Below, in pieces: positions 1 to 3,000 of a stretch of 64,000 nt of DNA. Within the stretch, counting starts at the first letter, position 1; each line of letters begins with the position of its first letter. Source of the DNA: Escherichia coli (lineage in GTDB: Bacteria > Pseudomonadota > Gammaproteobacteria > Enterobacterales > Enterobacteriaceae); the NCBI RefSeq assembly GCF_001677475.2, contig NZ_CP015229.1, one strand, 5' to 3'. Position numbers: made by a program.

Positions 1-3000
1 CAGATAATCTTCTGTACTTCAATACAGACGGGAATGCCTCACTGTCTCTGCTGTCAGAGAAGGGCCGCGCATTACTGGCGCATGACACGGCTGAAGCCAT
101 GCGCACGGAGCTTGAGCTGAACGCGGCTGCGACGATGGAACCCCAGAGTGATATCCGTGACCGCACACCGGGCAGGCTGGCCCTGTCCGGGATGTATGGG
201 TTTGGACAGGCATTCACCAGAGCCGAAGCTCTGTCATTTAACGGACAGGCTGATTTCGTTATATGGCTGCAGACAGTCACACCGGGGCGTTATGCGGTCA
301 GTATTGCGGACTCTTCCACGCTGCTGAAGGGGACCACGAAATTTAACGGTATCATTGATGTGATGTGGTCACCGTCTGATAACGACGAATCAGACACGGC
401 GCGTAAATTCAAAACGCTGCTGTACTACAACCAGTATTACGAGGATGAGCACAACATACATTGCATGCGTTATCATTACAGTGATAACACCTGGACCGCA
501 ACATCAAACATGATTGTGTATGACGGCAACTCCCTGGCATATCTGATGTCCTCAACCGCCGGTAATGGTCCGTTCTCATATTACCAATACCCGGCACTTG
601 GCGTGCCGATTATGGCGGTATATCAGGGAGAAAGTTTTGGTGAAAATGCTTCTCTGGGACTCGGTGATACTGTGCCGGGTTCCCGTCTTGGTCCTCTGGC
701 CATGAGTGCACCGGTTAGTGATACAGGGACATACGCATCCTCACCGCAGGTTGTGATTGGCGGTGCCGGTGAATACAACTTCCCCGGTCGTTACACGGCG
801 CTTTCGGGCCTGGGTAACAATTATGGTACTCAGCGTGGCTTTATCGGTCTTTTTGTACGCATTGAGTAATGAGGAAATCAGGCATGAAAATCAGAGCGGT
901 GAAAGGTATCAGAAACGCACATTATCTTGAAAATGGTGCGGTTGACTGCGAGGTGTTATTTGAAGGTGAAACGGAGTTCGTCCTGTATACCGCCATACAG
1001 GATGATATGGCCCCGACAGGCCAGCATGTCTGGCAGGAGCTGCAAAGCGGGAAATGGGGCGAAATCGCCCCGTTCACCGTCACGCCGGAACTTATTGCAG
1101 CGGCAAAGGATGCCAAAAGGCGGGAAATTGAGGCATGGCGAGACAGTCAGGAAAACGTTGAGTTTATTTTCACGTTTGATGGCCGTCGTTTTGATGGCGG
1201 AAAAACCTCGCAGTCACGCCTTGCGCCCGTGGTTGCAACAGCGCAGGCCGGACTGCTTCCGGATGGTTTTTTCTGGACTGATGCGGATAATAACAACGTC
1301 ATACTGACCAGGGAGAAACTTATTGCGCTGAACGATGCCATGATGGTGGCCATGGTGGCGGAGGGCTTTAAAATCCACGAACGTCAGCGCGAGATGAAGG
1401 AACAACTGAATAATCTGAATGACTTGGCTTCAATTCGAGCGTTTGGCATTTGCTAATAGATTAGCTGCGACTAGCGTTCGAAGCTCTCCCCGACAATTGG
1501 AATTGTCGGGGAGAGGCTGCAGGGCAAGGGTTATTAATTGAGTCTATGCATAACAACTTTTAACAAAAAGCCTAAAAAAACATTCTCCAAAACTAGAACG
1601 TAACTGGTTGATTTTGATGAAACCCACAACATTGTTGCTTTAAACAATCAAGATATTAAAAAGTGCACTTATTTCATTGAATATAAAGGATTAATCACCT
1701 ATTTCGCTCACCTTCTTATTCAGCAAACGAGAAGCGCGCCAGTAAACCAGCAACATCAGGCCCATTACGATAGTCAGCGTAATGCTGGTGGCTGCACCAA
1801 ATGGCCAGTCACGAATATTGAGGAACTGTACCTTGATGACGTTACCGATCAGCAGGTTTTTCGCACCGCCCATCAGGTCGGACACATAGAACAGGCCCAT
1901 CGCTGGCAGCATTACCAGCAGACATCCGGCAATAATTCCTGGCATCGTCAGTGGAATAATGATGCGGATAAAAGTCTGTAACTTGCTGGCACCGAGATCG
2001 CGCGCCGCCTCAAGCAACGGCTTATCCAGTTTTTCGATACTGGAGTACAGCGGCATCACCATAAACGGCAGCAGAATGTAAACCAGACCGATAATCACCG
2101 CACTGGGCGTGAACATGATACGAATTGGTGTGTCGATAACGCCCAGCCAGAGCAAAAACTCGTTGAGATAGCCTTTGGTGCTGAGGAAAATTTTCAGCCC
2201 GTAGATGCGAATCAGTGAGTTGGTCCAGAAGGGAACAATCAGCAGAAACAGCAGCAGCGGACGCACCTTGTGTGGCAGCTTCGCCAGAAACCAGGCAAAT
2301 GGATAGCCCAGCACCAGGCAGGCGAGGGTGGCGATCAGCGCCATATTCAGCGAGTGCAATAGCACTTCAAAATAGAGCGGATCGAGCAGACGCGTGTAGT
2401 TATCCAGCGTAAAGACCATTTTGACGAAACTGGCGTCGTCGCGGGTCAAAAAGCTGGTGCCAATGATCATCAGGTTGGGCAGAAAGACAAACAACACAAG
2501 CCAACCGACAATAGTGACAATCACTACATTCTGGAACTTACTTGTGTTCTTCATCAGCCAGTACGACCTCCCAGCTTTCTACCCAATTAATGGCCATTTT
2601 TTGGTCGAGAGAGTGGTCAAAGTCAGGATCGTCTTCATTGAAGAATTCGCTGACCATCACCATCTTGCCATTTTCCAGTTCAACAACCGACTCCAGCGTC
2701 ATGCCTTTGTAGTTACGCTCGCGAACGTAACCAATCAGCCCTTCAGCGTGGTTGTCGTCGTTAATCTCTTCAACACGTAAGTCTTCCGGGCGCAGCAGAA
2801 CATGCAGTTTTTGCCCCGGTTCAACGGCGAAGTTAACGTAGATATTACATTCGCGGCCTTCAACGTTGGCGCGTACGCGCTGCTCGTCGAGACGTTCGAT
2901 AACAGTGGCGTTAAACATATTGATTTCGCCAATGAACCCGGCAACAAACAGGTTTTTCGGCTCTTCGTAGATTTCACGCGGCGTGCCGTCTTGCTCAATG

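Follow-up and report, generated by a model that had tools for sequence, protein, structure and literature searches.

The DNA analysed here, hereafter called the window, is a stretch of 64,000 nucleotides from Escherichia coli (contig NZ_CP015229.1), and its first 1,722 nucleotides join two phage-like tail genes to the 3' end of potB, which encodes a permease of the spermidine/putrescine ATP-binding cassette (ABC) transporter. The outermost gene, on the plus strand, encodes a side tail fibre (stf-like), and its 3' part lies in the window (positions 3-869, frame 3, 289 codons, stop codon TAA at 867-869). Its open reading frame (ORF) is still open at the window start; the gene begins upstream of the window. 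The ORF matched PHROG 2636, 'tail fiber protein', with an expectation value (E) of 5e-73 over profile positions 316-568 of 568, that is, the C-terminal 253 positions. Full-length homologues of 696 amino acids carry the domains PF08400 (phage_tail_N) and PF03406 (Phage_fiber_2), and the counterpart in E. coli GB089, the closest complete relative (98.2% identity over window positions 1-2600), is listed in RefSeq as 'prophage tail fiber N-terminal domain-containing protein'. By family homology, positions 3-869 encode a lambdoid Stf-like side tail fibre.

The second plus-strand gene (884-1456) encodes a DUF4376 protein of 190 amino acids of the tail-fibre-chaperone type. Its ATG at position 884 lies 15 nucleotides past the stf stop and is preceded, at a distance of 6 nucleotides, by GAGGAA; a second possible ATG, at 869, overlaps the stop codon of stf. 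The protein matched PHROG 1141 with E 3.7e-82, and Pfam PF14301 is recorded for the exact protein. In Alteromonas phage V22, DUF4376 proteins encoded directly 3' of the tail fibre gene are fibre chaperones (PMC7289586, PMC10579305), and chaperone activity in fibre maturation was demonstrated for the distant homologue V22 gp27 (PMC7289586). By analogy with V22, the first-pass annotation's 'chaperone-like' seems a reasonable label for the window protein.

Both phage ORFs converge on the polyamine transporter genes, which occupy the minus strand. An ORF scan placed 234 nucleotides of A+T-rich non-coding DNA (1457-1690) between the DUF4376 gene and potB, in good agreement with the earlier estimate of about 235 base pairs (bp). 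potB itself (1691-2554) is intact and encodes 287 amino acids; it scored 551.8 bits with NCBIfam NF007044 (cutoff 348), the match covering residues 1-282 and leaving the last five residues outside. It is overlapped by potA (2538-3674, minus strand; NF006987, 731.9 bits), the first gene of the operon, which encodes the ATP-binding subunit; pepT follows on the plus strand (3924-5150; ORF scan). Neither potC nor potD was found within the window. The PHROG matches and the convergent orientation thus bear out the presence of phage-like tail genes downstream of potB: the ORFs are of phage type, and no intact potC and potD were found immediately upstream of them.

To locate the boundary between phage and chromosome, we made a three-way alignment of the window, the empty potB/potC junction of K-12 MG1655 (attB), and both junctions of the GB089 prophage. 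The only block common to attB in K-12, attR in the window and GB089, and attL in GB089 is the 14-bp sequence CACCTTCTTATTCA (1709-1722), which lies inside the last potB codons; the copy at GB089 attL, CACCTTTTTATTCA, agrees with it in 13 of 14 positions. On its right, this core is followed by sequence collinear with K-12 potB. On its left, positions 1457-1708 have no counterpart at the empty K-12 site and match GB089, with three differences in the 234 nucleotides of 1457-1690. Aligning the potB 3' end with a prophage-free strain, as had been proposed, thus yielded the attachment core directly. The boundary between the window's phage DNA and potB is a precise site-specific attachment junction, and the prophage insertion at the potB/potC junction that had been suspected is resolved to the base.

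Read on the potB strand, the core encodes L-N-K-K-V, and in the uninterrupted operon it also spans the ribosome-binding site of potC. PotB ends with NKKV-SEIGD* in the window versus NKKV-ELE* (TGA stop) in K-12. Since the window continues with SEIGD and a stop where the native gene has ELE and a stop, the last five codons and the stop codon of potB (S-E-I-G-D and TAA; 1691-1708, minus strand) are phage DNA, as the first-pass annotation had surmised. That annotation had, however, let the phage DNA end at position 1690. Positions 1-1690 are indeed phage-derived, but the phage DNA runs on to 1708, or to 1722 with the core, and includes the five terminal potB codons and the stop. In K-12, the stop codon of potB and the ATG of potC overlap. 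Because the crossover is within the 3' end of potB, 8 nucleotides upstream of the potC start codon, both ORFs survive; at attL, potC retains its ATG and the ribosome-binding sequence GGTGG, which is within the core. The current name 'potC site' is slightly imprecise, since the site is formed by the last potB codons and both genes survive the insertion.

The remainder of such an element can be seen in the two closest complete relatives examined. In GB089, the 48.4 kilobases (kb) between potC and potB are a complete lambdoid prophage with the order int, xis, exo, dicB, repressor region (cI/cro-like), replication genes (O/P-like), Q, lysis, terminase, portal, capsid, tail, J, lom, stf and DUF4376. 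OkiPb01676 carries a prophage of about 41 kb with the layout of the window and the same tail end, combined with a head module of the HK97 type. The difference in head modules between the two is typical lambdoid mosaicism. In both relatives, int and xis adjoin potC, and potC-potD are intact and read in the same direction as the neighbouring int. The integrase (WP_000074979.1, 372 amino acids) is identical in the two strains, has an arm DNA-binding domain and shows 44.8% identity to lambda Int over its full length. It had been stated that late phage genes replace potC and potD. This is true in so far as neither gene follows potB in the window; in the two relatives, however, they are displaced by about 41-48 kb and not lost. 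Likewise, the proposal that the main body of the element lies upstream is borne out in GB089 and OkiPb01676, where int, xis and then potC-potD follow, but the corresponding DNA of the source lineage is not visible.

The prophages of these relatives also carry clusters of transfer RNA genes downstream of Q, namely Thr-Gly in GB089 (35633-35786) and Ile-Lys-Thr-Gly in OkiPb01676 (28623-28932), and the GB089 prophage encodes an extra iraM-like anti-adaptor.

The segment 1457-1708, which lacks a K-12 counterpart and matches GB089, is the phage arm of the attachment site on the tail side and corresponds to the P arm of lambda attR (P-O-B'). This arm is present in 38 of 5,426 complete E. coli genomes. 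We aligned seven attR arms belonging to four diverged variants, represented by the window and GB089, by KKo003 and Ec-050, by O157:H7 FRIK2455, and by L005 and L011. The arms are largely scrambled outside a few invariant islands. Among these are TTCTCCAAAA (1583-1592), invariant in all seven arms of the four variants; TTGATTTT (1608-1615), a possible accessory-protein site; a core-proximal block, TTGAATATAAA (1677-1687); and CCTTCTTATTCA (1711-1722), which comprises 12 nucleotides of the core. Matches to other prophage types at the potB site start at the TTGAATATAAA block (query position 219-221). The sequence TTCTCCAAAACTAG (1583-1596, plus strand), which contains the invariant TTCTCCAAAA, is a predicted arm-type integrase-binding site. 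Its motif, CTCCAAAAC, recurs in the GB089 int-side arm in three tandem copies with the same orientation as the copy in the window arm. Counted from the core, one motif thus lies at about -124 and three lie at about +48, +59 and +72, and this 1 + 3 layout resembles that of P1 and P'1-P'3 of lambda. We infer that the conserved motif CTCCAAAAC represents candidate arm-type integrase sites.

After the last phage gene, the arm contains a perfect 15-nucleotide inverted repeat, CTCTCCCCGACAATT-GG-AATTGTCGGGGAGAG (1484-1515), with a folding energy of -26.9 kcal/mol. Its G+C-rich stem is retained in one of the diverged arm variants (KKo003 and Ec-050). The hairpin was considered as an intrinsic terminator and rejected: neither strand has a run of T residues after it, and a terminator scan made no call. 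A role like that of lambda sib would be speculation.

Taken together, positions 1-1722 very probably represent attR, the right-hand junction formed by a temperate, lambda-like phage that integrated site-specifically at the 14-bp core in potB. According to this model, a tyrosine integrase would recombine the phage into CACCTTCTTATTCA within the last potB codons. The last genes of the late operon, for the side tail fibre and the DUF4376 chaperone, would thereby come to abut the chromosome and converge on potB. The phage arm would provide potB with a new end of five codons and a stop, so that PotB remains full length. potC-potD would retain their start codon and ribosome-binding site and come to lie beside int and xis, at the opposite end of the prophage, with their orientation unchanged.

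Several observations weigh against this model. Only the attR end lies within the window, and int, attL and potC/potD were seen in relatives rather than in the source genome. A draft contig of identical lineage (GCA_043014985.2, ABVVWG020000043.1; 100% identity over 11,456 nucleotides) starts 297 nucleotides before the window, inside the fibre gene. The exact DUF4376 protein occurs in only four draft contigs of 20-50 kb, and a 55-nucleotide exact pattern from the window start had no match among species-representative genomes. Moreover, the search yielded no genome of a free phage in which attP is contiguous. The predicted attP, composed of the window arm, the core and the GB089 int-side arm, matched two 'phage' records only. 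In both, the match begins at the core and potC-potD are still present; these records are thus prophage excerpts. A protein search with Int against 50,697 phage records revealed no further close homologue. Finally, degraded elements with insertion sequence (IS) elements or truncated fibre genes occupy the potB site in other strains (L005, L008 and Ec-050).

These degraded elements raise the question of whether the element in the source genome is itself a decayed remnant rather than a complete, inducible prophage, with a surviving tail end and with the integrase or other modules lost by deletion or interrupted by IS elements. In L005 and L008, lysis genes and IS elements lie near potB, and tail genes are absent; Ec-050 has truncated fibre genes and IS629 at the site, O157 FRIK2455 has effector cargo and pseudogenes beside potB, and for the source lineage the upstream part is not visible. 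Both phage ORFs of the window are uninterrupted, however, and GB089 and OkiPb01676, the two complete genomes examined among those with the exact stf-DUF4376-arm-potB layout, carry full-length prophages including int and xis. We therefore regard a remnant as unlikely. Still less probable is a secondary rearrangement, that is, an inversion or recombination between the homologous tails of two prophages that placed the fibre genes beside potB, so that the DNA further upstream would belong to another prophage or location. Such an event has a precedent in O157:H7, where homologous tail regions of 10 kb mediated an inversion of 650 kb between the prophages at potC and yebW (PMC10925052), and the draft contigs of the window's lineage break inside the fibre gene, as would fit repeated sequence. 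The window itself has no sign of a breakpoint, and 15 complete genomes have the fibre genes co-linear with the clean site-specific arm-core-potB junction. That the ORFs belong to a non-phage element, such as a tailocin or a chromosomal island with fibre-like genes, is hardly credible: the window shows no more than two genes of the element, but they have strong PHROG tail-fibre matches, the attachment architecture is lambda-like, and in relatives the same genes stand last in a late operon of the canonical lambdoid type, which includes head, terminase and lysis genes.

How often the site is used was estimated by querying the 5,426 complete genomes with the intact K-12 potB/potC junction. The junction was present in one piece in 3,800 of them and as two separate halves with a 12-nucleotide overlap in about 1,625 (7,054 places overall). 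Thus, about 30% of complete E. coli genomes have an insertion at exactly the same point. The exact stf-DUF4376-arm-potB layout, with arm, core and potB co-linear with the fibre genes, is confined to 15 of the 5,426.

An attachment site within a coding region has a parallel. Phage 21 and e14 integrate in the 3' end of icd, where substitute terminal codons keep the product full length, as at potB. At icd, a long 3' segment is swapped for a near-synonymous copy, whereas at potB three native codons are replaced by five unrelated ones and the operon is split. Bacteriophage lambda resembles the element described here in having int-xis by one arm, the tail-fibre end by the other, and a short core. 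It differs in its intergenic attB between gal and bio and in the sequences of core and arm motif. Unlike lambda, the phage at potB has its target inside a coding region and must rebuild the end of the gene.

The site has been described before. Prophage Sp6 of strain Sakai lies between potC and potB (PMC8190617), 'prophage 5 (potC)' was reported for O157 (PMC10925052), and prophage J of O104:H4 is located at potB/potC (PMC3486847). Stx2 phages that separate potAB from potCD have a single integrase type in common (PMC9453080), the potC-site phages of O113:H21 being of one integrase type, and potC is listed among the sites of Shiga toxin (Stx) phages (PMC8065619). The potB/potC junction is therefore an established and heavily used site for lambdoid prophages, and the kind of feature found in the window is already known. 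Sakai Sp6, O104:H4 prophage J and the Stx2a and Stx2d phages of O113:H21 have the same potB-potC target and share the 12 core nucleotides CCTTCTTATTCA. Sp6 and other potC-site prophages also have a PotB of 287 amino acids with a phage-supplied tail, the lambdoid gene order, and tail genes at the potB end. The window differs from them in the arm adjacent to the core and in the terminal genes. The O157 potC-site prophage, for instance, has espK/nleB cargo and a PotB ending with (A)TEIDN, whereas the window has stf-DUF4376 and SEIGD; there is no stx or effector cargo between the DUF4376 gene and the attachment site.

Across the four diverged arm variants of the alignment, the phage-supplied PotB tail has the same length and a conservative sequence, reading SEIGD, SELDD or (A)TEIDN. 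Two variants encode the identical SEIGD by different codons (AGC versus TCC for serine, GGT versus GGC for glycine, and TAA versus TAG as the stop). Tails of equal length, and SEIGD specified by different codons, suggest that the phage-supplied tail of PotB is under selection at the protein level and not as a DNA site alone. The exact PotB-SEIGD protein was found in 1,878 contig-index blocks, beside very different prophage ends.

PotB also matches phrog_1577 (E 1e-120), and the GenBank 'phage' record ON470612.1 carries potC-potD-ycfZ-cobB. Bacterial pot flanks have thus leaked into phage databases via mis-trimmed prophages, and they could mislead prophage predictors.

The chromosomal backbone of the window is 97.6-98.6% identical to the 5,426 complete E. 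coli genomes, none of which is nearer. The differences fall mostly on third codon positions (10 of 11 in potB and 25 of 26 in potA), and this bias indicates that the divergence of roughly 2% is natural and not artificial. By this measure, the window comes from a lineage of Escherichia/Shigella that is rare or divergent. Scanned in full against Rfam, the window gave no match in 1-3000; the sole match at gathering score was the small RNA C0299 (36596-36674, plus strand, 111.9 bits) between hlyE and umuD. At the 3' end of icd (14454-15600), the iraM-ycgX-bluR region follows directly, as in GB089 and A16. This icd end is the attachment site of e14 and phage 21, and in the window this neighbouring prophage site appears to be empty. 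The site is also the location of Sakai Sp8 (PMC8190617).

An autotransporter adhesin gene of the ECIAI39_1904 family (22485-25132, plus strand) is divided into two ORFs by a one-nucleotide deletion near 22989 relative to A16, and is thus a frameshifted pseudogene unless the deletion is a sequencing error. Between dadX and cvrA, the minus strand encodes a protein of 488 amino acids (46085-47551), annotated in A16 as 'hypothetical protein'; it matches only the leucine-rich-repeat part of the type III effectors SlrP/SspH2 (E 1e-36), lies far below the family cutoffs and shows no match to the ubiquitin-ligase part of these proteins. A cluster resembling iron-uptake genes (52869-59316, minus strand) lies between ymgE and treA, is also present in A16, and comprises a TonB-dependent receptor, ModD, a methyltransferase and an ABC transporter (ATPase, permease and binding protein). 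At 59371-60920, immediately upstream of treA, a segment of about 1.5 kb contains two ORFs of 199 and 174 amino acids without an NCBIfam match, where A16 has about 0.3 kb.

In practical terms, the analysis locates the core and the phage-derived potB end of the window's arm variant to the base and puts the occupancy of the site at about 30% of complete E. coli genomes. Beyond such routine description of a locus, a single route leads further, namely the modest physiological question of whether the split between potAB and potCD alters spermidine uptake in lysogens. The displacement to the far end of the prophage cuts potC-potD off from the potA promoter. The int-side arm of GB089 showed no sigma-70-like promoter on the potC strand, and potCD is probably expressed in lysogens by read-through from int, with transcripts that would enter from the int side. 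It is a doubtful, though conceivable, extension of this idea that the phage arm was selected to keep the polyamine transporter working, and that spermidine uptake is wired to the prophage state as a reversible switch of the 'active lysogeny' type. Such a reading would draw on the PotB tails restored in all four arm variants and on the position of potC-potD, always downstream of int, in unchanged orientation and with the ribosome-binding site kept by the core. If potCD does depend on transcription from the int side, roughly 30% of E. coli would couple spermidine uptake to the state of a prophage.
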